In this document: one piece after another, positions 20,275 to 62,907 of the stretch | How positions within the stretch are numbered: the first letter of the stretch is position 1 | Layout of the letters: each line of letters begins with the position of its first letter | Sequence record: PZ583743.1 | Length of the DNA stretch: 64,000 nt | Strand: one strand, 5' to 3' | From: a phage | Translations under genes and position numbers: made by a program | The notes under the pieces: generated by a model | What the model saw: only the letters and a program-made list of their open reading frames with translations | Database searches by the model: none | Told to the model about the DNA's origin: nothing

Positions 20275-20577
20275 TTATTTACCTTTAATTACTTTAGCTG
20301 CTTCGATAGCCGCTTGCTGAAGGTCATCCATAGACATACCGAATTTAGAAGCAAAGTTATCAATTTTCTTTTCGACAGCATTCAAAGGCTTGGCCTGTTT
20401 ACCTTCATTAGCGCCAGGAAGAGCGAGAATACGCTCTTTGTCAATATAAAGGCTTACAAGTTTCTTACGGTCTTTATCGGACAAATCGTGAAATGAATGG
20501 GCCTTTTTATTTATAGCGGCTTCTAATTTACCTGCACTCACTCGCGCTTCAGTAATAAATTCTTGATATGTTTTCAT
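20275..20577 (-). CDS. ipII: Internal protein II
   Basis: 100 aa; capsid-targeting leader MKTYQEFITEA; size matches T4 IPII. Confidence 0.85.
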   Translation of the reverse strand: MKTYQEFITEARVSAGKLEAAINKKAHSFHDLSDKDRKKLVSLYIDKERILALPGANEGKQAKPLNAVEKKIDNFASKFGMSMDDLQQAAIEAAKVIKGK

Positions 20578-20685
20578 GTGTTTCCTTTAAATGTAAATAG
20601 TTTTATTCTTTAAGTTTGGGACAATTCATGCGTGCGAATTGTCCGTTTCTATATTTATCTATTACCGGGTTCGAACTCGGCTTTA

Positions 20686-21267
20686 TTAAGAATTACCACG
20701 GGCTGCATTAGCAACAGCGTAAGCGTACTGAACATTAGCGTCCTTAAACGTACCTTTAGAGGTATCTATTTCTGCCTTAAAGCCGCCTTTAGCCATAACA
20801 TCAGCAAATTCTTTACGGAAGGCCATTGCATCAAGACCTTTCCATGATGATTTATGCTTGGCGAATTCAAGACCAGCGTAGTTGACAGCCTTAGCTAATT
20901 TATTATCAATAACCCATTTACCAGCTTTAGGCACAAACACCGGGCCTTTCTGTTTAGAGAATAGTTTTAAATTCCAGCGACGAAGGTCACCGTCAGCTTT
21001 AACAAAAGCTGCATCCAAGTTACTAGCAACAACATCTTGAATATGGCCAAATTTAAGCCCATCAACTTCAATATTTAGATCGGTACGCCAGCGAAGTCCT
21101 TCCCAAGCGAAAGCTTTAAAGTCGGAAGCTTTTGTAGCTAAGTATCGTTCAATAGGAGCAGTTTTAGGGTCAAAGCCGTTTCCACCACGATAGTTCCACT
21201 CATCTTTATTAATGCCTTGAGCTTTTCCTGTAAAGGCTTCGGCGATAAATTCTTTATATGTTTTCAT
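20686..21267 (-). CDS. ipIII: Internal protein III
   Basis: 193 aa; leader MKTYKEFIAEA; matches T4 IPIII as remembered. Confidence 0.85.
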   Translation of the reverse strand: MKTYKEFIAEAFTGKAQGINKDEWNYRGGNGFDPKTAPIERYLATKASDFKAFAWEGLRWRTDLNIEVDGLKFGHIQDVVASNLDAAFVKADGDLRRWNLKLFSKQKGPVFVPKAGKWVIDNKLAKAVNYAGLEFAKHKSSWKGLDAMAFRKEFADVMAKGGFKAEIDTSKGTFKDANVQYAYAVANAARGNS

Positions 21268-21297
21268 TTTTGTTTCCTTGTTTGTTTTGATAGAGTA

Positions 21298-21327
21298 ATT
21301 ATACCATATTAATACTTAAGCGTAAAC
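21298..21327 (-). promoter_or_regulatory. Early-type promoter (GTTTAC, 18 nt, TATAAT) upstream of ipIII
   Basis: -35 at 21322-21327, -10 at 21298-21303. Confidence 0.5.
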
Positions 21328-21330
21328 CGT

Positions 21331-21590
21331 TTAAGCTTTACCGCCAGAAATAATTCCGAAGTTGTTAAAATCGTATCCAATATCGTCAACATCTACTTTA
21401 GGGCTTGCTGCAACATAAGCAATTTCACTATGTTTTGCATGGTGTTGATTTCTTTACCATCGCCACCTAAGAAAAAATACCCATTACGTTTTAATGAGCC
21501 AAAGTCTTCCGCATCACCAATGAAAGCTTTAACTTTAAATTTAGGACCTTTGGCATCTGCTTCAGCGATAAATTCTTGATACATTTTCAT
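21331..21590 (-). pseudogene. Internal-protein-like gene, apparently frameshifted
   Basis: 65-aa ORF 21393..21590 carries leader MKMYQEFIAEA; a second frame stays open ~23 further codons to a stop at 21331-21333. Confidence 0.4.
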
Positions 21591-21596
21591 TTTTCC

Positions 21597-22010
21597 TTAG
21601 TAAATTGATTTACCATAGTATTTGTACCAAGTAGGACGTTGAGCAATTTTTTCATCTAAGCGTGCTTGACTTATCGCAATGGACGCTTCGGACGGGACAT
21701 AATTATTACGAAATTCGGCAGGGATGTCGGAAATATCCTGGACAGTCGCGTCCTTGATTTTGAAACCACGTTTCAAGCATTCAGCGATTAGCTCGATTTG
21801 ACGTAAACGTAAAAATTCGAGTTTGTCGTAAAAGAATGTTACGTGACCTGTGCCTAAGATAAATGTTGGAGAGATTTTAAAATCCTTTACACGTTTACCG
21901 TTTTGAACATGTTTACGGACTGCACCAAATACGCGTGGTAATTCACGATACTCTGCCATAAGATGTTGGTCGGTCAGTTCAGAAACAAGTGTTAAATTGA
22001 TACGAGTCAT
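21597..22010 (-). CDS. denV: Endonuclease V (pyrimidine-dimer DNA glycosylase)
   Basis: [35 protein letters not shown] matches T4 DenV as remembered; start at ATG 22008-22010 after GGAGG. Confidence 0.9.
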
Positions 22011-22037
22011 AATTTCCTCCAAGTAGTTGATGAATGT

Positions 22038-22067
22038 ATAGTATCAAAGTCCTTGGAGGAAGTAAAC
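22038..22067 (-). promoter_or_regulatory. Early-type promoter (GTTTAC, 18 nt, TACTAT) for denV
   Basis: -35 at 22062-22067, -10 at 22038-22043. Confidence 0.5.
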
Positions 22068-22068
22068 A

Positions 22069-22871
<803 letters not shown>

Positions 22872-23327
22872 TTAAAAGAGGCTGTTCATTATTCGGTAAA
22901 GTGAAGGGCCCATCACATATTGCCACTGGGTATGAGGAATAAGAGCAAAAGCATCCATCTCTGGAATCATAACGCCATCTTTATTTTCAAAATAAGACTC
23001 GCAATGGCAATTTCTAAACATCTCATGCTCTACTGGAATCGTATAATAAAATAACTGTAAGTCTTTATTACTAGAATATTTAAATACACCTAGGTCTTCT
23101 AGAAGGTCTGGATTATAATTGCTAAAGCCAGTCTCTTCTAAACATTCTCTTCGTGCTGCATCTAGCGCGCTTAAATCAGAATTTTCTACACGGCCCTTTG
23201 GAATATCCCAGCGATGGGCCATCATTCCAGGCTTACGAGAACCGGTAACCCGACCCATAAATAAATCTTTATCTTCTGTCATAAAGATAATACCAGCTGA
23301 TAATGTTTTCATTTTAATTTCCTGCAT
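22872..23327 (-). CDS. nudE: Nudix hydrolase NudE
   Basis: 151 aa; Nudix box (RRECLEETGF); position directly after e. Confidence 0.8.
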   Translation of the reverse strand: MQEIKMKTLSAGIIFMTEDKDLFMGRVTGSRKPGMMAHRWDIPKGRVENSDLSALDAARRECLEETGFSNYNPDLLEDLGVFKYSSNKDLQLFYYTIPVEHEMFRNCHCESYFENKDGVMIPEMDAFALIPHTQWQYVMGPSLYRIMNSLF

Positions 23328-23797
23328 TCAGTGATAAAGTTATTTAAATTTTGAGTATATTTCTTTTCATCAAAAATCTTTTGTTGTCTGCGTAGCCGCC
23401 ATGGCATTTCAATGAACGTGTACCATATCCCAGATAATATTGCTGCTGTAAAAATATTAACAAGTATGGTTAAAAGAATCCAATCTCCTATTCTGTCCAT
23501 TGGATTTTTTATAAAAAAGTAAAATACGAATGATGTCACAGGAAGACTAATAATATACCACAGAATCATAATTTTATCTGTGAACCAATCAGCGTTCGTT
23601 AACTTAGCGCGACCATTATGAATACACACGAATTTATCATCTGTTATAATAGATGGCTTAGCTGCTTGATATCCCATTCTAAACTCCCTAATCAACAAAT
23701 TTTTCATATCTTCGGAACAACCATTCCAGTCAACTCTATCAACTGAAATGCCATCATCCCCATCATCTAAATCATACCAGCGAGTTTTTAAAATCAT
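23309..23797 (-). CDS. Hypothetical membrane protein, 162 aa
   Basis: Hydrophobic helices in the C-terminal half. Confidence 0.5.
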   Translation of the reverse strand: MILKTRWYDLDDGDDGISVDRVDWNGCSEDMKNLLIREFRMGYQAAKPSIITDDKFVCIHNGRAKLTNADWFTDKIMILWYIISLPVTSFVFYFFIKNPMDRIGDWILLTILVNIFTAAILSGIWYTFIEMPWRLRRQQKIFDEKKYTQNLNNFITECRKLK

Positions 23798-24156
23798 TTA
23801 ATTTTCCTACAATCACTCACAAACTCTTCCATTGATTCTTTTTCAATATAAGACATGTAGCTATTATATTCTTTTAATTGTATTTTGTAATCTTTTTTTC
23901 TTTGCCAATTTATTTTAAAATTATCATAATGAAAATATAACATGGTACCAAAGAATGAAAATAATGAAATAATTTTAGTATAGTGAAGTTCACTCCAAAC
24001 TTCTATTATATTTACTGTGCCGTCAATGTTTAAAATAAGACAGTCAATTAACAATCCAAAAAGACTACCCGCAAGAGCTGCAGCCAACGCCACAGCAAAA
24101 ATTAAAAATGACTCAGGAAGCGAATATTTGACTTTATTTAGTTTTGGCTTTTGCAT
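23794..24156 (-). CDS. Hypothetical membrane protein, 120 aa
   Basis: Two predicted transmembrane segments by eye. Confidence 0.5.
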   Translation of the reverse strand: MQKPKLNKVKYSLPESFLIFAVALAAALAGSLFGLLIDCLILNIDGTVNIIEVWSELHYTKIISLFSFFGTMLYFHYDNFKINWQRKKDYKIQLKEYNSYMSYIEKESMEEFVSDCRKIK

Positions 24157-24551
24157 CGTGATTCCTTAACAAATTTCATAATTTCATCAAATTCATATGC
24201 AGCAAGTTTAAGCTGGTGTTCCTTTTTAATCTTTTTGCACTGTGCTTTCCAATCACGTACGCGTTTACGATAATGTCTTCCTTGATACCAGTATCCTACC
24301 CAATTTACAGGTACTAATAAAAATGGAACTATCATTGGAAGAATTAGTGTTGACGCAAATATTATATTAGATTCAATATTAGTCATAACATCTATAACTA
24401 TTCCAACCCCCAGTAGAATTACAAATGATACAGCTATTACAGGACCTATTAATACATCAGTAGAAATTAGCTGGCGCTTTAATTCATACTTTAAGGGTTT
24501 ACTTGGAAGATACATTGATGGCTTTGACATATTCTCTACATTCCTTAACAA
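24138..24551 (-). CDS. Hypothetical membrane protein, 137 aa
   Basis: Two predicted transmembrane segments by eye. Confidence 0.5.
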   Translation of the reverse strand: MLRNVENMSKPSMYLPSKPLKYELKRQLISTDVLIGPVIAVSFVILLGVGIVIDVMTNIESNIIFASTLILPMIVPFLLVPVNWVGYWYQGRHYRKRVRDWKAQCKKIKKEHQLKLAAYEFDEIMKFVKESRCKSQN

Positions 24552-25107
24552 ATTTTTCTAGTAATAAATCACTTTCAAAATTAGGATTTTCCACTAATTT
24601 ATCAAAAAGATCATCAACAATATTCAAGATATTTCTTTTACTAAGAATACGTTTATTTTCATGCTTCGTTTCAGAATCAACTATAAGAGTAAAGAAATAT
24701 TTCTTTCCCTGAAATTTTACTGTAGTATCAATATAGAATAAATTTGACTTTTGTAAGTTACGTTTAAACCATGCGTCACTTAAACTATAAACACCGAGAT
24801 AATCAAAATCGTCGTTTAAATAACAAACTGTCCATTCAGGAGAAATGAAATCAGTAAATTCAACATCAAAATCGCATGTCAATGAATAAATTGATTCAAT
24901 ACTGTTAATAAGTATTCCAGGACGTATTAAAGACTTTTTACCTCTGGAAAATCTTCCAGAAAGACTTTCATCAGTTTCATACGAAGAGCCCCAATAGTAA
25001 TTACGTCCTTCTGCCATACGTTTAAGAGCATTTAGTAATTGGTCTGGAACATCAACTTGTCTTTGAAACTCTTCAAACATTGAATTGAAATCATTTTGCA
25101 TTCTCAT
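24499..25107 (-). CDS. Hypothetical protein, 202 aa
   Basis: Track ORF. Confidence 0.5.
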   Translation of the reverse strand: MRMQNDFNSMFEEFQRQVDVPDQLLNALKRMAEGRNYYWGSSYETDESLSGRFSRGKKSLIRPGILINSIESIYSLTCDFDVEFTDFISPEWTVCYLNDDFDYLGVYSLSDAWFKRNLQKSNLFYIDTTVKFQGKKYFFTLIVDSETKHENKRILSKRNILNIVDDLFDKLVENPNFESDLLLEKFVKECREYVKAINVSSK

Positions 25108-25148
25108 TCCTATTTACTCCAAGTAATAGGGGCCGAAGCCCCTTATCA

Positions 25149-25742
25149 TTATTTCAGAGAATTAATGTATTCCTGAACATCGGCAGAGGTGGTTTCAACC
25201 CCAGAAATATTGCCGTTAAAGGTTTCAACTCGAGCAAGGGTATCTTCAATATCAACCTTAGTCAGTGCTGCAATTTCAACTACATCATCGGCAGTACTAA
25301 TTCCAAGGGCATTTGCCGCACGAGTTTCACGAATATATTCCAATTTAACTGCAAGTTCTTGGCGAGCATCATCTAACTCAACTACTTTCTTGGCGATTTC
25401 AATTCGCATTTCAGCATAACCATCAGCTTTAGTAGTCAGTTGTTCAGCTGTTCGACGATATAGTAAACCGAGTTTAGCATGCATTGTTACATCTTGACCT
25501 TCGGAAAGAAGCTTGCGAATTTCACGCTCTTTTGATTCGGCTTGCTTATTCTTTTCGACAATAAGTTCACGAATACGCTTTTCTTCATTAATAGATTTAA
25601 CGGAAGCAGTTTTTAGATCTTTAATCTTATCAAGTAGTTTTGCTGCTGCAGCAGTATACTGTTCTTCAACAGATAGATTTTTAGCCATAGCAGAACCAAG
25701 TTTAGTGCGAATAAACTCAACAATTTTCTTCAGTGTGTTCAT
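25149..25742 (-). CDS. Coiled-coil protein, 197 aa (possibly PspA/IM30-like)
   Basis: Long heptad-rich helices; PspA resemblance is a weak impression only. Confidence 0.55.
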
Positions 25743-25769
25743 AGTATTTCCTTAGGTTGATACAATTAG

Positions 25770-25799
25770 ATAATATCACGTTTTTAATAGATTGTAAAC
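25770..25799 (-). promoter_or_regulatory. Early-type promoter (GTTTAC, 18 nt, TATTAT)
   Basis: -35 at 25794-25799, -10 at 25770-25775. Confidence 0.45.
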
Positions 25800-26135
25800 T
25801 TATTCTTCGTCTAGCTCATCGATAAAGACGTCGATGGCCTTGATAACGGCATCATTGATAGCCAATAAAGTAAAATCATCGTCAGTGCCTTTAGAAGATT
25901 CTAAAGCATTGATATATGCTTGGTTAGCAAGTTCCCAAGCCTTTTTAAAATAAGGAGCTTCATCATCAGGACAAATATCCCGCACGCCTTCAAAGATACG
26001 TTTGGCATAATCTAACACCCACTGTACAGGCATGTTTTGAGAACGTTCGTTAAACTCTTTAAAGTCCTTAGATTCAAAAAGCTCTTCAGGATAATAATTT
26101 CGATTACAAAAAGCTTTACTAAAGTTGCGTTTCAT
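25800..26135 (-). CDS. Hypothetical acidic protein, 111 aa
   Basis: Track ORF. Confidence 0.5.
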   Translation of the reverse strand: MKRNFSKAFCNRNYYPEELFESKDFKEFNERSQNMPVQWVLDYAKRIFEGVRDICPDDEAPYFKKAWELANQAYINALESSKGTDDDFTLLAINDAVIKAIDVFIDELDEE

Positions 26136-26190
26136 AATGTTCTCCTCAAATTATAGGCTCATAATATCTCAATCATGAGCCTATGTAAAC

Positions 26191-26466
26191 TTATTTCATA
26201 TTATTAAAATATTCTTCTGCGATTTCGTCGTTATCATGGTAAACTTTAGAAGACAGTTTAACATAACCTTCAGCAGTGAACATGTTAATCACAACCTTTA
26301 CAGTATACCACTGACCATCTTCATTACCCATTACTGCGTAAGTTTCAAACATCGGATGATCAGGACCGATAACTTTAATATCATTCACTGTACGACCGAA
26401 ATCTTCTGAAACGCATTTCATAAAGAAGTTGAACAGTTCGCCGTAATTATCCATTTCATTCTCCAA
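26191..26466 (-). CDS. Hypothetical protein, 91 aa
   Basis: Track ORF with early promoter upstream. Confidence 0.5.
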   Translation of the reverse strand: MENEMDNYGELFNFFMKCVSEDFGRTVNDIKVIGPDHPMFETYAVMGNEDGQWYTVKVVINMFTAEGYVKLSSKVYHDNDEIAEEYFNNMK

Positions 26467-26498
26467 GTTGTTTTTCTGTATCAGTAGTTGATAGTTGT

Positions 26499-26528
26499 AT
26501 AGTACAACGGAAGAACAGGGATGTAAAC
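26499..26528 (-). promoter_or_regulatory. Early-type promoter (GTTTAC, 18 nt, TACTAT)
   Basis: -35 at 26523-26528, -10 at 26499-26504. Confidence 0.5.
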
Positions 26529-26660
26529 AGTTTTGTGAAAAATTTTTTAAAAAGTTTTAGGGAATTCTAGGGCAGGGAGGGGCAATTAAAGGATAGGATA
26601 ATATATTATAAAGGGTAGAAACTAAATGATGCCTAGAGAGGTCCAGAAAGGCCTAGATAC

Positions 26661-26686
26661 CAAAAAGCCCTATCATTTAGATAGGG
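26661..26686 (-). terminator. Rho-independent terminator
   Basis: Hairpin CCCTATC-ATTTAG-ATAGGG followed by a T-run on the minus strand. Confidence 0.5.
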
Positions 26687-26694
26687 ATTTAAAA

Positions 26695-27258
26695 TTATTT
26701 ATCTAGTTTAGTTATTATAGCTTCTGCGGCAGCTTTTAGCTTAGATGCGGTGTTAATACGATTTTTAATTTCAGTATACGCATCGCCAAGAACATCAAGG
26801 CTATCAGAATAAACACTTACACTATTGCGTTCGCTATTTGAAATAGAACCTTTAGTTTTACGATCAAAATCGGTGTACACGTCTTGAAGATCACGGGCTG
26901 CCTTCTTTGCATCATCCAATGCATCAAGAGCTTTATTCAAAGCATTAACGTATTTTTTAGTGTCGAACATATTCTTAGAAATTTTAACAGGTGCACGTTC
27001 AGGAGTAGCTAAGGCAGATTTAGGAACCTGAGCGCCTGATGCTAATTTCTTAGAAATTTTGAAAAATGTTTTATTGAATTTATTTTCTTGACTCATCGTA
27101 AAAGAACTATTATCGATGTTATACATTTCAATAGCTTTAGCTTTCCACTTAAGAAAATCGCCCCGGTCTTTTGGGTCCAAGTGGAAGAATACTTTAGTAA
27201 GATCTGCTTCAGATGGTAATTTTGCTGCTTCGGTTAAAAATTCGGCATAAGTTTTCAT
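26695..27258 (-). CDS. Internal-protein-like protein, 187 aa
   Basis: Leader MKTYAEFLTEA; no T4 counterpart recognised. Confidence 0.6.
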   Translation of the reverse strand: MKTYAEFLTEAAKLPSEADLTKVFFHLDPKDRGDFLKWKAKAIEMYNIDNSSFTMSQENKFNKTFFKISKKLASGAQVPKSALATPERAPVKISKNMFDTKKYVNALNKALDALDDAKKAARDLQDVYTDFDRKTKGSISNSERNSVSVYSDSLDVLGDAYTEIKNRINTASKLKAAAEAIITKLDK

Positions 27259-27344
27259 TTAAAATCCTTGAAATAATTTATTGGTTATTAATTATTTATC
27301 ACGTTGTTATCATCCATGTTAGCATTCTCTGAGTGATTCAAACT

Positions 27345-27470
27345 AAAAAGCCCCAACCTTTCGGTCGGGGCTAAGCCTTGCGGCAACCTTGTCGGGGTTC
27401 CACCTGCTAAGGCAAGTGTTTGTACGAAACGCCGGGATTCGAACCCGGTTATTAAGTAGTTGACGCTACT
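27345..27470 (-). ncRNA. Putative structured stable RNA (tRNA-like arm, terminator at 3' end)
   Basis: Contains CCGGGTTCGAATCCCGG T-arm-like hairpin and ends in GCCCCGACC-GAAA-GGTTGGGGC plus T-run. Confidence 0.35.
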
Positions 27471-27479
27471 CAATATTTT

Positions 27480-27680
27480 TAAAAGGCCATATCTCGACCA
27501 TATCCGAACGTTCCGTCAAAAACGCTACTCGGCTTACGGCAAAGATATTTCCTCGAATCGATAATTCGGTGCGCCGTTTCTGCTGTGATAGTAAAGAATC
27601 AGAACACAGTAAAACTGTGGGAGAAACTATACTCCAGGGAACATCAGTCCGACGACTTACCGGTAGCGACCCGGTTTCTT
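27480..27680 (-). ncRNA. Possible second stable RNA
   Basis: About 200 nt with no credible ORF between the 116-aa gene and the first RNA; placement by analogy to T4 species C/D RNAs. Confidence 0.2.
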
Positions 27681-28029
27681 AGTATTCTTTTAAAGCATCA
27701 ACCTGTCCACGACGTTTACGCCATAAATCAATTACTTCATACGCAGATTCAGCATTTCGAATTGGACGGCATTTATATAAAGACTTGTGATTTTGATATT
27801 GTGTAGATAATGGAATTTTATCTAAAAGGTCTTTACGTTCAAAGTATTCGTAACCATCTAAACCAAATGAACGATTTTTGAGAAATTGCCAATGACCGTA
27901 TTCGTTTTCGACATAAACATAATCTGCATGCTGATAAAGTAAATTAATTACACGTTCAGAAATAACAGTGTCATTGTGATTAAAATAGAATGTTAAATCA
28001 TGAACTACTAAATAAACATTACCTTTCAT
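27679..28029 (-). CDS. Hypothetical protein, 116 aa
   Basis: Track ORF directly downstream of the tRNA cluster. Confidence 0.5.
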   Translation of the reverse strand: MKGNVYLVVHDLTFYFNHNDTVISERVINLLYQHADYVYVENEYGHWQFLKNRSFGLDGYEYFERKDLLDKIPLSTQYQNHKSLYKCRPIRNAESAYEVIDLWRKRRGQVDALKEY

Positions 28030-28045: not shown

Positions 28046-28121
28046 TGGTCGAGGCAGTAGGGATCGAACCTACGACCTAGGACTTAGAAGGTCCTTGCTC
28101 TTCCTTCTGAGCTATGCCTCG
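28046..28121 (-). tRNA. tRNA-Arg (anticodon UCU), CCA encoded
   Basis: Folds by eye: acceptor CGAGGCA/TGCCTCG, loop CTTCTAA, T-arm GTAGG-TTCGATC-CCTAC. Confidence 0.85.
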
Positions 28122-28125
28122 GATT

Positions 28126-28200
28126 TGGCGGACGTGATAGGATTCGAACCTATAACCAATCGCTTAACAGGCGATCGCTCTGCCATTGAGCTACACATCC
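28126..28200 (-). tRNA. tRNA-Asn (anticodon GUU), CCA encoded
   Basis: Acceptor GGATGTG/CACGTCC, loop CTGTTAA, T-arm ATAGG-TTCGAAT-CCTAT. Confidence 0.8.
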
Positions 28201-28204
28201 AAAT

Positions 28205-28291
28205 TGGTGGGGAGTGGTGGAGTCGAACCACCCGAGTCGCAATGACAATGGATTTACAGTCCACACCGCTACCTCTACGGGATAACTCCCC
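28205..28291 (-). tRNA. tRNA-Tyr (anticodon GUA), class II long variable arm, CCA encoded
   Basis: 87 nt; loop CTGTAAA identical to E. coli tRNA-Tyr; T-arm GGTGG-TTCGACT-CCACC. Confidence 0.8.
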
Positions 28292-28300
28292 AAATTAATT

Positions 28301-28375
28301 TGGTGGCCCTGGGTGGAATTGAACCACCATCTGGCGATTATGAGTCGCTTGCTTGAACCTTCCAGCTACAGGGCC
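28301..28375 (-). tRNA. tRNA with CAU anticodon (Ile2-lysidine type or Met), CCA encoded
   Basis: Acceptor GGCCCTG/CAGGGCC, loop CTCATAA; sits at the T4 tRNA-Ile position. Confidence 0.8.
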
Positions 28376-28376
28376 T

Positions 28377-28452
28377 TGGTGCTGATTGACGGAATCGAAC
28401 CGCCGACCTTCTCATTACAAGTGAGTTGCTCTACCTACTGAGCTAAATCAGC
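28377..28452 (-). tRNA. tRNA-Thr (anticodon UGU), CCA encoded
   Basis: Acceptor GCTGATT/AATCAGC, loop CTTGTAA. Confidence 0.85.
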
Positions 28453-28457
28453 AAAAC

Positions 28458-28547
28458 TGGCGGAGGCGATAGGATTTGAACCTATGAGTCGCCGGAGCGA
28501 CTGCCGGTTTTCAAGACCGGTGCATTAAACCACTCTGCCACGCCTCC
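28458..28547 (-). tRNA. tRNA-Ser (anticodon UGA), long variable arm, CCA encoded
   Basis: 90 nt; loop CTTGAAA; T-arm ATAGG-TTCAAAT-CCTAT. Confidence 0.85.
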
Positions 28548-28549
28548 AG

Positions 28550-28623
28550 TCTCCATACAAGGATTTGAACCTTGGACCTCCTGATCCCAAATCAGGCGCT
28601 CTACCAAACTGAGCTACACGGAG
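28550..28623 (-). tRNA. tRNA-Pro (anticodon UGG), CCA not encoded
   Basis: Acceptor CTCCGTG/TATGGAG, loop TTTGGGA; 3' end abuts tRNA-Ser (dimeric precursor arrangement). Confidence 0.8.
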
Positions 28624-28633
28624 TAAATTAAAT

Positions 28634-28707
<74 letters not shown>

Positions 28708-28712
28708 AAATT

Positions 28713-28799
28713 TGGTGCGAGAAGTGGGACTCGAACCCACAAGGAAATCATTCCGCAGCATTTTAAGTGCTGTGCCTTTACCAATTTGACCATTCTCGC
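28713..28799 (-). tRNA. tRNA-Leu (anticodon UAA), long variable arm, CCA encoded
   Basis: 87 nt; acceptor GCGAGAA/TTCTCGC, loop CTTAAAA. Confidence 0.85.
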
Positions 28800-28800
28800 G

Positions 28801-28873
28801 CTGGGAATAAAGGACTCGAACCTTTGCATCCTGGAATCAAAATCCAGTGCCTTACCAACTTGGCTAATTCCCA
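28801..28873 (-). tRNA. tRNA-Gln (anticodon UUG), CCA not encoded
   Basis: Acceptor TGGGAAT/ATTCCCA, loop TTTTGAT; 3' end one nt from tRNA-Leu (dimeric precursor arrangement). Confidence 0.8.
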
Positions 28874-29927: not shown

Positions 29928-30215
29928 TTACAAAAGATTTTTAGCAATAATCTTGAGATGTGCCGCAGAAATGTGTTTAGCTTTAAACAACGCAGTTTCT
30001 TCAGCAGGAGAGATAATGATTGTAGCACCATCCTTTTTAGCAGACCACCCATCACCTAGGTAAACAGTACCTTTGATTTCTTCGCCATCAACCAAACTAA
30101 TCATTGGTTTACCTTCTCGTCCTTTATTTGCTTTAATAACTTCAGAAGTAAGAGTAGCTTCAGTAATAGTAGAAACCGGGGTAGTTGTAGAAGTAAATTC
30201 TTTGAAAGTTTTCAT
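29928..30215 (-). CDS. ipI: Internal protein I
   Basis: 95 aa; C-terminal ...KHISAAHLKIIAKNLL and core MIKANKGREGKPMISLVDGEEIKG match T4 IPI as remembered; leader region diverged. Confidence 0.85.
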   Translation of the reverse strand: MKTFKEFTSTTTPVSTITEATLTSEVIKANKGREGKPMISLVDGEEIKGTVYLGDGWSAKKDGATIIISPAEETALFKAKHISAAHLKIIAKNLL

Positions 30216-57545: not shown

Positions 57546-59170
<1,625 letters not shown>

Positions 59171-59171
<1 letters not shown>

Positions 59172-59419
59172 TGGAAGGTTTAATTGAAGCTATTAAATCA
59201 AACGACCTCGTAGCCGCTCGTAAATTATTTGCTGAAGCCATGGCTGCAAGAACGATTGATTTAATTAAAGAAGAAAAAATCGCTATCGCTCGTAATTTCT
59301 TAATCGAAGGTGAAGAACCTGAAGACAAGGATGATGACGAAGACGAAGATGGTGATGATAAAGACGACAAAAAAGACAAAGACTCTGACGAAGATGACGA
59401 AGACGAGGATGATGAATAA
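59171..59419 (+). CDS. 67: Prohead core protein gp67
   Basis: 82 aa with highly acidic Asp/Glu-rich C-terminus. Confidence 0.8.
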
Positions 59420-59844
59420 TGCTTCTGATCCCTGAAACTCATGAATTAGTTCTCGAGAATGTCGAAGCACTTATTCCTGAAGCACAGGGTCGCTTTGACG
59501 AATTGTCTTCTGCTTTAAATAAAGACGATATAAATACAATTGTCGAGAATATGCTTGATGATGAAACTGATTTAGCAGTTGCATTAGCTTCTATTAATGA
59601 AAATATGCCGTTAAATGAATTCATTGTTAAGCACGTTTCAGCTCGTGGTGAAATTACACGTACTAAAGACCGCAAAACACGCGAACGTAATGCATTTCAA
59701 ACCACTGGGCTGTCTAAAGCAAAACGTAGACAAATTGCTCGCAAAGCTACCAAAACGAAGATTGCCAATCCAGCAGGTCAATCTCGTGCTCAGCGTAAGC
59801 GTAAAAAAGCTCTTAAACGCCGTAAAGCATTAGGATTAAGCTAA
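59419..59844 (+). CDS. 68: Prohead core protein gp68
   Basis: 141 aa, basic C-terminus; order as in T4. Confidence 0.8.
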
Positions 59845-60497
59845 TGAATGAACCCCAATTACTAATTGAAACTTGGGGTCAACCTGGCGAAATTATTGAT
59901 GGTGTGCCAATGCTTGAATCCCACGATGGAAAAGACTTAGGTTTAAAACCGGGTTTATACATCGAAGGAATATTCATGCAAGCAGAAGTCGTCAATAGAA
60001 ATAAACGTCTTTATCCAAAACGCATATTAGAAAAAGCGGTAAAAGACTATATTAATGAGCAAGTTTTAACTAAACAAGCTCTCGGAGAATTAAATCATCC
60101 TCCACGCGCTAATGTTGACCCGATGCAAGCCGCTATCATTATAGAAGATATGTGGTGGAAAGGAAATGACGTATACGGACGAGCTCGTGTTATTGAAGGT
60201 GACCACGGTCCTGGAGATAAATTAGCAGCTAATATTCGTGCCGGATGGATTCCAGGAGTTTCTTCTCGTGGATTAGGTTCATTGACTGACACAAATAAAG
60301 GTTATCGTATCGTAAACGAAGGATTCAAATTAACTGTAGGTGTTGATGCAGTATGGGGTCCAAGTGCTCCAGATGCATGGGTAACTCCTAAGGAAATTAC
60401 CGAATCACAGACGGCGGAAGCCGATACAAGTGCCGATGACGCCTATATGGCTCTCGCAGAGGCCATGAAAAAAAGCGTTATAAATATTATTATCTAA
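59844..60497 (+). CDS. 21: Prohead core protease gp21
   Basis: 217 aa; [20 protein letters not shown] matches T4 gp21 as remembered. Confidence 0.9.
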   Translation: MNEPQLLIETWGQPGEIIDGVPMLESHDGKDLGLKPGLYIEGIFMQAEVVNRNKRLYPKRILEKAVKDYINEQVLTKQALGELNHPPRANVDPMQAAIIIEDMWWKGNDVYGRARVIEGDHGPGDKLAANIRAGWIPGVSSRGLGSLTDTNKGYRIVNEGFKLTVGVDAVWGPSAPDAWVTPKEITESQTAEADTSADDAYMALAEAMKKSVINIII

Positions 60498-60513
60498 ACA
60501 ACAGGACTACAAA

Positions 60514-61323
60514 ATGCTTAAAGAACAACTGATTGCTGAAGCGCAAAAAATTGATGCTTCCGTTGCTCTTGATAGTATTTTCGAATCAGTTAATATTTCT
60601 CCGGAAGCAAAAGAAACTTTCGGCACTGTATTCGAAGCTACCGTCAAGCAGCACGCCGTTAAATTAGCTGAATCTCATATCGCTAAAATTGCTGAAAAAG
60701 CAGAAGAAGAAGTAGAAAAAAATAAAGAAGAAGCAGAAGAAAAAGCTGAGAAGAAAATTGCTGAGCAAGCTTCTAAATTCATTGACCATCTTGCGAAAGA
60801 ATGGCTCGCTGAAAATAAATTAGCAGTTGATAAAGGCATCAAAGCCGAACTGTTTGAATCCATGCTTGGTGGATTAAAAGAGCTCTTTGTTGAACACAAC
60901 GTTGTTGTTCCAGAAGAATCAGTTGATGTTGTGGCTGAAATGGAAGAAGAGCTGCAAGAACATAAAGAAGAATCAGCTCGTCTGTTCGAAGAACTCAATA
61001 AGCGTGACGCATATATCAATTATGTGCAGCGTGAAGTGGCATTGAGCGAAAGTACTAAAGATCTGACTGAGTCTCAAAAAGAAAAAGTCTCTGCTCTGGT
61101 CGAAGGTATGGATTATTCAGATGAATTCTCAAATAAATTGAGTGCCATCGTAGAAATGGTGAAGAAGTCTAATAAAGATGAAAGCACTATTACTGAGGGT
61201 ATAAATACTCCTGATACTGAAGCAGCCGGACTAAATTTCGTCACTGAAGCTGTAGAAGATAAAGCTGCACCTGGTGCAGAAGATATTGTAAGTGTATATG
61301 CGAAAGTCGCATCTCGTTTCTAA
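60514..61323 (+). CDS. 22: Prohead scaffold protein gp22
   Basis: 269 aa, Glu/Lys-rich helical protein; order as in T4. Confidence 0.85.
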   Translation: MLKEQLIAEAQKIDASVALDSIFESVNISPEAKETFGTVFEATVKQHAVKLAESHIAKIAEKAEEEVEKNKEEAEEKAEKKIAEQASKFIDHLAKEWLAENKLAVDKGIKAELFESMLGGLKELFVEHNVVVPEESVDVVAEMEEELQEHKEESARLFEELNKRDAYINYVQREVALSESTKDLTESQKEKVSALVEGMDYSDEFSNKLSAIVEMVKKSNKDESTITEGINTPDTEAAGLNFVTEAVEDKAAPGAEDIVSVYAKVASRF

Positions 61324-61341
61324 TTTTAAAGGTTAACACAA

Positions 61342-62907
61342 ATGACTATCAAAACTAAAGCTGAACTTTTGAACAAATGGAAGCCATTACTGGAAGGTGA
61401 AGGTTTACCGGAAATTGCTAATAGCAAACAAGCGATTATCGCTAAAATCTTTGAAAACCAGGAAAAAGATTTCCAGACAGCTCCAGAGTACAAAGACGAA
61501 AAAATCGCCCAAGCGTTCGGTTCTTTCTTAACAGAAGCTGAAATCGGTGGTGACCATGGTTACAATGCTACTAACATCGCTGCTGGTCAGACTTCTGGCG
61601 CAGTAACTCAGATTGGCCCAGCTGTTATGGGTATGGTACGTCGTGCTATTCCTAACCTGATTGCTTTCGATATTTGCGGTGTTCAGCCGATGAACAGCCC
61701 GACTGGTCAGGTATTCGCACTGCGTGCTGTATATGGTAAAGACCCAATCGCTTCAGGTGCTAAAGAAGCATTCCACCCAATGTATGGTCCAGATGCAATG
61801 TTCTCTGGTCAGGGTGCTGCTAAGAAATTCGCTGCTTTGAAAGCAAGTGATACTCTTGAAGTTGGAACTATTTACACCCACTTCTTCCAGGACACTGGTA
61901 CTGTGTATCTGCAAGCTACAGAAGCTAAACAAATTGATTCCACTGCATCTGACGTAGCTAAATTAGATGCTGAAATTAAGAAACAAATGGAAGCTGGTGT
62001 ACTGGTAGAAATCGCTGAAGGTATGGCTACTTCTATCGCTGAACTTCAGGAAGGTTTCAACGGTTCTACCGATAACCCATGGAATGAAATGGGCTTCCGT
62101 ATCGATAAACAAGTTATCGAAGCTAAATCTCGTCAGCTGAAAGCTGCTTACTCTATCGAATTAGCACAAGACCTCCGCGCTGTTCACGGTATGGATGCTG
62201 ATGCTGAACTGTCTGGTATTCTGGCTACCGAAATCATGCTGGAAATCAACCGTGAAGTTGTTGATTGGATTAACTACTCAGCTCAGGTTGGTAAATCTGG
62301 TATGACCCTGACTCCAGGTTCTAAAGCTGGTGTATTTGACTTCCAGGATCCGATTGATATTCGTGGTGCTCGCTGGGCGGGTGAATCCTTTAAAGCTCTG
62401 TTGTTCCAGATTGACAAAGAAGCAGTTGAAATTGCTCGTCAGACCGGTCGTGGTGAAGGTAACTTCATTATCGCTTCCCGTAACGTAGTTAACGTTCTGG
62501 CTTCAGTTGATACTGGCATTTCTTATGCTGCACAGGGTCTGGCTACCGGCTTTAACACTGATACTACCAAGTCAGTATTTGCTGGTGTTCTGGGTGGTAA
62601 ATACCGTGTATATATCGACCAGTATGCTAAACAGGATTATTTCACTGTAGGTTATAAAGGTCCGAACGAAATGGATGCTGGTATTTACTATGCTCCATAT
62701 GTAGCTCTGACTCCGCTGCGTGGTTCCGATCCGAAGAACTTCCAACCAGTAATGGGATTCAAAACTCGTTACGGTATCGGTATCAACCCATTTGCAGAAT
62801 CCGCTGCTCAGGCTCCGGCTTCTCGCATCCAGAGCGGTATGCCTTCTATTCTGAATAGCCTTGGTAAAAACGCTTACTTCCGCCGTGTATATGTTAAAGG
62901 TATCTAA
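61342..62907 (+). CDS. 23: Major capsid protein gp23
   Basis: 521 aa, the T4 gp23 length; order as in T4. Confidence 0.95.
   Translation: MTIKTKAELLNKWKPLLEGEGLPEIANSKQAIIAKIFENQEKDFQTAPEYKDEKIAQAFGSFLTEAEIGGDHGYNATNIAAGQTSGAVTQIGPAVMGMVRRAIPNLIAFDICGVQPMNSPTGQVFALRAVYGKDPIASGAKEAFHPMYGPDAMFSGQGAAKKFAALKASDTLEVGTIYTHFFQDTGTVYLQATEAKQIDSTASDVAKLDAEIKKQMEAGVLVEIAEGMATSIAELQEGFNGSTDNPWNEMGFRIDKQVIEAKSRQLKAAYSIELAQDLRAVHGMDADAELSGILATEIMLEINREVVDWINYSAQVGKSGMTLTPGSKAGVFDFQDPIDIRGARWAGESFKALLFQIDKEAVEIARQTGRGEGNFIIASRNVVNVLASVDTGISYAAQGLATGFNTDTTKSVFAGVLGGKYRVYIDQYAKQDYFTVGYKGPNEMDAGIYYAPYVALTPLRGSDPKNFQPVMGFKTRYGIGINPFAESAAQAPASRIQSGMPSILNSLGKNAYFRRVYVKGI

Follow-up and report, generated by a model that had tools for sequence, protein, structure and literature searches.

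The stretch of DNA analysed here, 64,000 nucleotides (nt) of record PZ583743.1 and hereafter called the window, is Tequatrovirus (T4-like phage) DNA, and besides orthologues of the T4 internal-protein (Ip) genes ipI, ipII and ipIII it carries three further open reading frames (ORFs) that begin with the capsid-targeting leader of those proteins. We refer to them as ip65 (21393..21590, 65 amino acids (aa)), ip93 (22069..22350, 93 aa) and ip187 (26695..27258, 187 aa), all on the minus strand. The 7.5-kb region in question matches 872 phage records, nearly all of them T4-like phages of enterobacteria, the closest being Escherichia phage vB_EcoM_SP1 (hereafter SP1; 95.5% identity, 99% of the query), and the window keeps the T4 gene order vs.8, ipII, ipIII, e, nudE, e.2-e.8, tRNA cluster, ipI. 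Scanning the six-frame translation of the whole window with the motif MK.[YFW].[ED]F gave six matches, each at the start of a minus-strand ORF, whereas 200 shuffles of the window averaged 0.02 matches and never gave more than one. All six ORFs begin MK[TM][YF]xEF and have a Shine-Dalgarno-like GGA or AGGA 6-13 nt upstream. Three are the T4 orthologues: ipII (20275..20577, minus strand, 100 aa; leader MKTYQEFITE↓A, the arrow marking the end of the leader) encodes a protein with 93/100 residues identical to T4 IPII (phrog_7857, 4.5e-55), ipIII (20686..21267, minus strand, 193 aa; MKTYKEFIAE↓A) one with 176/193 identical to T4 IPIII (phrog_5341, 3.5e-117), and ipI (29928..30215, minus strand, 95 aa) one with 94/95 identical to T4 IPI (Pfam IPI_T4, 2e-53). 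The bodies of the ip65, ip93 and ip187 products are unlike IPI-III, with BLASTP overlap confined to the leaders; none of them has an above-threshold Pfam match, and IPI_T4 (PF11634) is found only in the ipI orthologue. An earlier reading of the sequence, the first-pass annotation, had claimed three additional leader-bearing ORFs with bodies resembling none of the T4 internal proteins, and both claims are borne out by the scan and the BLASTP comparison. Its ORF boundaries fared less evenly: the 187-aa ORF stands, but the 98-aa ORF shortens to 93 aa from an ATG at 22350, and the 65-aa ORF is a frameshifted gene and not a whole one.

The first ten residues of IPIII suffice to package foreign proteins into the T4 head (PMC9026906, PMC3012670). 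An aromatic residue at position 4 and a Phe at position 7 are the capsid-targeting determinants, residues 8 and 10 govern cleavage, and the prohead protease gp21 cuts after the Glu of L/I-x-E (PMC9026906). The leaders of ip65, ip93 and ip187 contain all of these mapped features (aromatic 4, Phe 7, L/I 8, Glu 10), and the gp21 context that the first-pass annotation had proposed to look for is present at positions 8-10 of each, the predicted sites being IAE↓A, LSE↓S and LTE↓A, respectively, with a small residue next. The ip93 product has a second gp21-type site, LNE↓A, at positions 13-15 (ILNE↓A). As a side observation, the IPI leader (MKTFKEFTSTTTPVSTITE, followed by A) has no L/I-x-E at positions 8-10, as is also the case in T4, and its sole gp21-type site is ITE at 17-19, so the six leaders are not all processed at residue 10. 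The window also encodes a T4-type prohead core, with Portal_T4 (gp20), GP67, Peptidase_S77, T4_CASP and Gp23 located at 57585-62907; these include the leader-removing protease gp21 (59844..60497, plus strand; Peptidase_S77, 1.6e-111) and the scaffolding core protein gp22 (60514..61323, plus strand; T4_CASP, 4.7e-90), a component of the structure on which the leader presumably docks. The three genes thus share with T4 ipI-III the ten-residue leader determinants (Y/F4, F7, L/I8, E10), a minus-strand neighbourhood, small size and gp21 and gp22 encoded alongside, but differ from them in having no sequence similarity beyond the leader and no IPI_T4 domain, and, for ip187, in lying outside the recognised Ip loci.

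In the mechanism that we propose on the basis of published T4 work, the ten-residue capsid targeting sequence would bring each protein into the prohead scaffolding core, the gp21 encoded in the window would remove the leader by cutting after Glu10 of L/I-x-E, and the mature protein would be retained in the head beside the DNA and injected along with it. After injection it would most likely act against one of the host's first-line defences, much as each of Ip1, Ip2 and Ip3 counters its own GmrSD type IV enzyme. We consider it likely that ip65, ip93 and ip187 are accessory internal-protein genes of the T-even type, with packaging, cleavage, injection and an anti-defence role as their expected properties. 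For ip93 and ip187, packaging and processing are rather probable.

Public genomes already label two of the three ORFs, ip93 and the gene from which ip65 derives, as internal head proteins; ip187 is the exception. Its product begins MKTYAEFLTE↓A and matches phrog_2280 ('unknown function', 4.2e-53); 165 phage records contain a version at least 85% identical, RB14ncORF136c being one, and every one of them calls it 'hypothetical protein'. Relative to T4, the gene is a clean insertion of ~660 bp between the rnaC terminator and the region upstream of e.8, bounded by two minus-strand terminators: an intrinsic one directly 3' of ip187 (26668..26686), at the end of the insertion, and the one at the 3' end of the rnaC-like RNA (27349..27372), which forms the upstream boundary of the cassette. 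The ends of these terminators share GGGCTTTTT, of which T4 has one copy here, linking the flanks directly; this suggests that recombination between short repeats added or removed the cassette. This position is outside both recognised Ip loci (ipII/ipIII-e and ipI-57B) and constitutes a third site, while ip65 and ip93 lie inside a recognised locus; location in such a locus is a positional habit and not a strict requirement of the Ip class. A late-promoter-like box, GATAAATA (27293..27300, minus strand), is found 42 nt upstream of the ip187 ATG and has one mismatch to the T4 late-promoter box TATAAATA. Separately, three short predicted proteins from public metagenomes (P0010, P0011 and P0014) combine ip187 fragments with phage sequence unrelated to it, the C-terminal portion of NudE in one and the initial residues of e.8 in another; these are either natural recombinants at a hotspot or assembly chimeras.

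The relatives of ip187 reach well beyond the nearest phages. A word-indexed search returned only proteins that are at least 89% identical, and an exhaustive HMMER search added P0015, which is 30% identical and led to a wider set in other T4-like genera, ~350 records of the phage collection that are all labelled 'hypothetical'. The family is found in Mosigvirus, Karamvirus and Marfavirus and in the JS98, CHI14 and Kosakonia phage 305 groups. In PG7 (Karamvirus), Marfa, ESh15 (Mosigvirus) and JS98-like phages the orthologue is likewise found in the ip187 slot beside the tRNA cluster, and in PG7 the annotated e.8 and e.6 homologues come after it. Family leaders include MKTYNEFLNES, MYTFNEFLAET and MLNFKEFITES, and the family alignment has a second [LI]xEA/G site in most members. 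A remote relative is g140 of Yersinia phage fD1 (157 aa, leader MKSYTQFLNEA; hhalign 96.4%, E 1e-9), for which BLASTP similarity to ip187 is confined to the leader; RB69ORF149c, on the other hand, is 88% identical over 136 aligned residues. Both fD1 g140 and RB69ORF149c lie in the same slot as ip187, between e.8 and the tRNA/small-RNA cluster, both share its layout of leader, small helical domain, K/P/A linker and helical bundle, and all three are annotated as hypothetical. The g140 protein is listed as phage-particle-associated on the basis of liquid chromatography-tandem mass spectrometry (PMC8309999 Table S3); the paper on the fPS phages contains no proteomics. Our searches for the family found no annotation or paper describing it, and it may have an older name among the Ips of Repoila et al. 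1994.

The family alignment also bears on whether the leaders could be mere recombination scars, in which the ribosome-binding site (RBS) and leader DNA served as exchange homology and some leader-bearing ORFs, notably ip187, encode cytoplasmic proteins that are never packaged. The 5' ends of the ip genes do cross-match, since those of ip65 and ipIII in the window match the 5' ends of T4 ipI, ipII and ipIII with DNA identities of 77-94% over 44-69 nt, a similarity of RBS and leader that would allow cassette exchange by homologous recombination, and ip187 in the window is without a canonical TATAAATA. However, a functional-looking leader with L/I-x-E is kept in ip187 orthologues that have diverged too far at DNA level to recombine in this way, the leader being 50-80% identical within the family and the body 19-28%, or roughly 22%. 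The orthologues have canonical late promoters as well, the box upstream of their starts being TATAAATA in PG7 and ESh15 and CATAAATA in Marfa. Furthermore, the ten-residue leader on its own packages foreign proteins (PMC9026906), and the remote family member fD1 g140 has been found in particles (PMC8309999). We therefore regard the scar explanation as highly improbable. As for the leader-directed alternative, the ip187 family (phrog_2280, with RB69ORF149c, RB14ncORF136c and, remotely, fD1 g140) could represent an unrecognised class of leader-targeted, gp21-processed and injected proteins at a third Ip locus, a proposal that we make tentatively and would put at somewhat less than an even chance. 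Given that the family spans phages of different hosts, its target may differ from the GmrSD enzymes inhibited by Ip1-3, or could be a more general first-line defence.

The AlphaFold model of ip187, computed with the family alignment (predicted local distance difference test score, pLDDT, 79), has a disordered, detached leader modelled with low confidence (residues 1-11), a three-helix domain (17-73), a flexible linker and a helical bundle (101-186), and depicts the mature product as a basic, all-helical, two-domain protein. With a predicted mass of 19.7 kDa and an isoelectric point (pI) of 9.46, the mature form would resemble T4 IPIII in size and charge (IPIII*: 20.3 kDa, pI 9.62). Pfam gave only sub-threshold matches for ip187, to cytochrome b562 and the ALIX V domain (14-17 bits, cut-offs ~30), NCBIfam gave none, and a sequence search of the PDB returned nothing at E < 0.1. 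These properties raise the question of whether the ip187 family might be packaged mainly as bulk DNA-associated head proteins, contributing to charge neutralisation, DNA organisation or ejection, instead of as specific inhibitors of a defence; for ip187 we take this to be the chief alternative. In its favour are the basic charge of the predicted mature form (32 Lys and Arg in 177 aa), an inter-domain linker that is rich in Lys, Pro and Ala and greatly expanded in orthologues (e.g. PAKAPKEPKAATVKAPAPKAAPAVKPAAP in PG7), and the contacts that T4 internal proteins make with DNA phosphates through their lysines (PMC3012670). The family has also kept one genomic slot in several genera, compared with the fast turnover of classical Ips. 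On the other hand, ip187 is absent from T4, T2 and W143, which makes it dispensable for head function, and, as with other accessory Ips, phages either carry the cassette or lack it; moreover, IPIII is likewise basic and abundant, yet is a specific GmrSD inhibitor (PMC12373910). On balance a bulk structural role seems unlikely to us, and the ip187 family, as the sole unrecognised element among the three ORFs, can reasonably be proposed as a new injected protein.

The second gene, ip93, is by sequence similarity an Ip5-family internal head protein gene. Its product matches phrog_3499 ('internal head protein', 1.2e-46) over residues 1-87, recurs at 100% identity in at least 133 phage records, carries the name 'internal head protein' in RefSeq, and is 47.6% identical to T2 Ip5 over 84 aa (E 1e-21); ip65 and ip187 have no similarity to the Ip5 family. 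A TTG start at 22365, which gives the mechanically derived 98-aa ORF (22069-22365), was rejected because the leader begins at the ATG at 22350, and this ATG is also the start used in relatives (282-bp coding sequences in SP1 and W143). Ip5 of T2 and RB51 belongs to the same phrog_3499 and is encoded at the ipI-57B locus, whereas ip93 is an Ip5-family paralogue located at the ipII/ipIII-e locus, where it is fused to the end of the endolysin gene; its C-terminus is nine residues longer than that of Ip5, and relative to Ip5 it is a diverged paralogue or allele. The endolysin gene e (22347..22835, minus strand) encodes 162 aa, of which 153 are identical to T4 e (164 aa), and overlaps the start of ip93 at its 3' end. 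It is preceded by two exact copies of the T4 late-promoter box TATAAATA (22849..22869, minus strand), at -34 and -21 from the e start. Considering the overlap and the two upstream boxes, late co-transcription of ip93 with e is the simplest reading. A by-product of the overlap (22347-22352) is that the last residues of e differ from those in T4.

The third ORF, ip65, is the broken copy of a known gene. An 84-86-aa protein, named 'internal head protein' in many RefSeq entries, is encoded by SP1, W143 and many other Tequatrovirus and Mosigvirus phages at the same position between denV and ipIII (phrog_2667), and ip65 is the same gene. The window copy has 50 intact codons, including the leader MKMYQEFIAE↓A, followed by 15 out-of-frame codons, and thus differs from the SP1 and W143 proteins in its length of 65 aa and in an unrelated 15-residue tail. 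The DNA alignments with SP1 and W143 place the cause at a single T missing after codon 50 (~21440/21441), and for this reason we rejected the 65-aa ORF as a complete small gene. Residues 1-50 are 100% identical to the product of the intact W143 gene and 94% to that of SP1, the phrog_2667 match is limited to residues 1-54, and by tblastn ~175 of 205 records hold an intact gene that matches residues 1-50 at 92-100% identity. Downstream of the deletion the coding sequence continues in another frame, nearly identical to the intact gene, as far as 21331; this out-of-frame 3' remnant (21331..21392, minus strand), seen in the frame-2 translation and the DNA alignments, ends in SEIAYVAASPKVDVDDIGYDFNNFGIISGGKA and a stop. 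The gene has no promoter of its own. Since no record in the phage collection shares the exact allele, it is a private mutation or a sequencing error, so that ip65 may be either a pseudogene or a sequencing artefact; from its sequence it is probably an inactive, recently inactivated copy of a known Ip gene.

Frameshifts in this 84-86-aa gene are recurrent. At least three independent events fall within ~20 nt (21420-21445 in the window; ~740-760 in L003-L005), namely a -1 shift in the window, a +2 shift (an extra AA) in JM10 and Pu-Krd-SF6 and a -1 shift in an A-run in G2133, and in ~30 of the 205 phage records the gene reads into the alternative frame. This pattern may stem from repeated gene loss or from locally elevated mutation. 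It could also mean that the short form is functional, a truncated internal protein consisting of the leader and the first 40 mature residues, as the frameshifted versions in the ~30 records share one alternative frame, with their stops only a few codons apart, and the truncated product retains an intact leader and is basic (pI 9.46). Nevertheless, three different events (-1, +2, -1) within so short a distance, near identity to intact genes after the frameshift, as expected of recent inactivation, tails with no conservation beyond that imposed by the shared DNA, and retention of the full frame in ~175 of 205 records make a functional short variant quite improbable, and we retain the reading of ip65 as an inactivated gene.

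What the injected proteins might do is suggested by analogy. Because injected head proteins act before phage gene expression, the phage has nothing else with which to counter defences that cleave DNA as it enters. Each of Ip1, Ip2 and Ip3 blocks its own GmrSD type IV enzyme, and comparable activity has been predicted for other proteins encoded at the Ip loci (PMC12373910). By this analogy an anti-restriction role can be suggested for ip65, ip93 and ip187, and we would place a specific anti-defence function close to, though not above, an even chance. Several observations weigh against the interpretation of the three as accessory injected internal proteins. Ten other ip genes assayed against five further GmrSD systems gave zero inhibition (PMC12373910), so GmrSD inhibition is not a general role, and the precedent for it is confined to Ip1-3 (PMC12373910). 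The ip65 ORF is truncated, and its exact allele was not found in any record of the phage collection. Classical Ips are basic, unlike the intact 86-aa version of the ip65 product (pI 4.9) and the ip93 product (pI 6.3). For ip187, the upstream box is non-canonical (GATAAATA in the window and AATAAATA in SP1), and the fold and sequence searches gave no functional clue. Finally, the fD1 particle list that contains g140 also includes DenV, endolysin, NudE and an HNH-type ORF (PMC8309999 Table S3), and for that reason offers weak support and is not specific for head contents.

Much of the general picture has been described before. As cited in PMC12373910, Repoila et al. 1994 described leader-bearing Ip genes that vary among T-even phages ('at least 10 reported'), and both the use of the leader to find Ips and the proposal of a diverse injected anti-restriction set have been published (PMC12373910, PMC3012670, PMC9026906). 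The leader sequences of ip65, ip93 and ip187 were not found in the supplements of Silas et al. 2025. The view of the first-pass annotation that the three ORFs are novel cargo is not borne out, given that ip93 belongs to the Ip5 family, ip65 is a broken copy of a known 'internal head protein' gene and variable Ips have already been published. Its suggestion that such genes are a place to look for new anti-defence effectors had likewise been anticipated in print (Ip1-3 against GmrSD), but retains its value for ip187, which is unannotated and outside the Ip loci. The database searches that it recommended connected ip93 and ip65 to 'internal head protein' families and left ip187 without a functional clue. 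Conceptually, then, the window holds nothing new, and it offers one concrete, testable candidate, the ip187 family. Work on this family could add to the known injected anti-defence effectors, and the annotation of therapeutic T4-like phages would benefit from it.

The neighbourhood of ip65 and ip93 is rearranged relative to T4. The endonuclease V gene denV (21597..22010, minus strand; 124/138 aa identical to T4 DenV) is located between these two Ip genes, giving the order vs.8-ipII-ipIII-ip65-denV-ip93-e, which is common to SP1, W143, G2133 and others. In T4 the order is vs.8-denV-ipII-ipIII-e, with denV on the other side of ipII, and the remark in the first-pass annotation that T4 differs here was correct. 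The denV segment (21601-22046) has 78% DNA identity to T4, compared with 88-94% for the flanking vs.8, ipII/ipIII and e segments, which suggests that the ip93-denV-ip65 block is a mosaic segment of different ancestry. The ipII/ipIII-e locus is clearly a hotspot. Two further leader-bearing proteins are encoded at this locus in other phages. W143 has a 104-aa protein beginning MKTYKEFIAESANQ (L002, 2295-2609) that is annotated as 'hypothetical', and T2 has the 157-aa IpIV (L011, 1941-2414), which is identical to fD1 g129 (L010, 4786-5259) and weakly similar to IPII (32% over 77 aa). Further along the window, the tRNA cluster (28046-28873) lacks tRNA-Ile and the homing endonuclease gene segB and comprises ten genes (Arg, Asn, Tyr, Met, Thr, Ser, Pro, Gly, Leu and Gln) compared with eight in T4; a 116-aa ORF (27679-28029) adjoins tRNA-Arg, upstream of an rnaD-like sequence.

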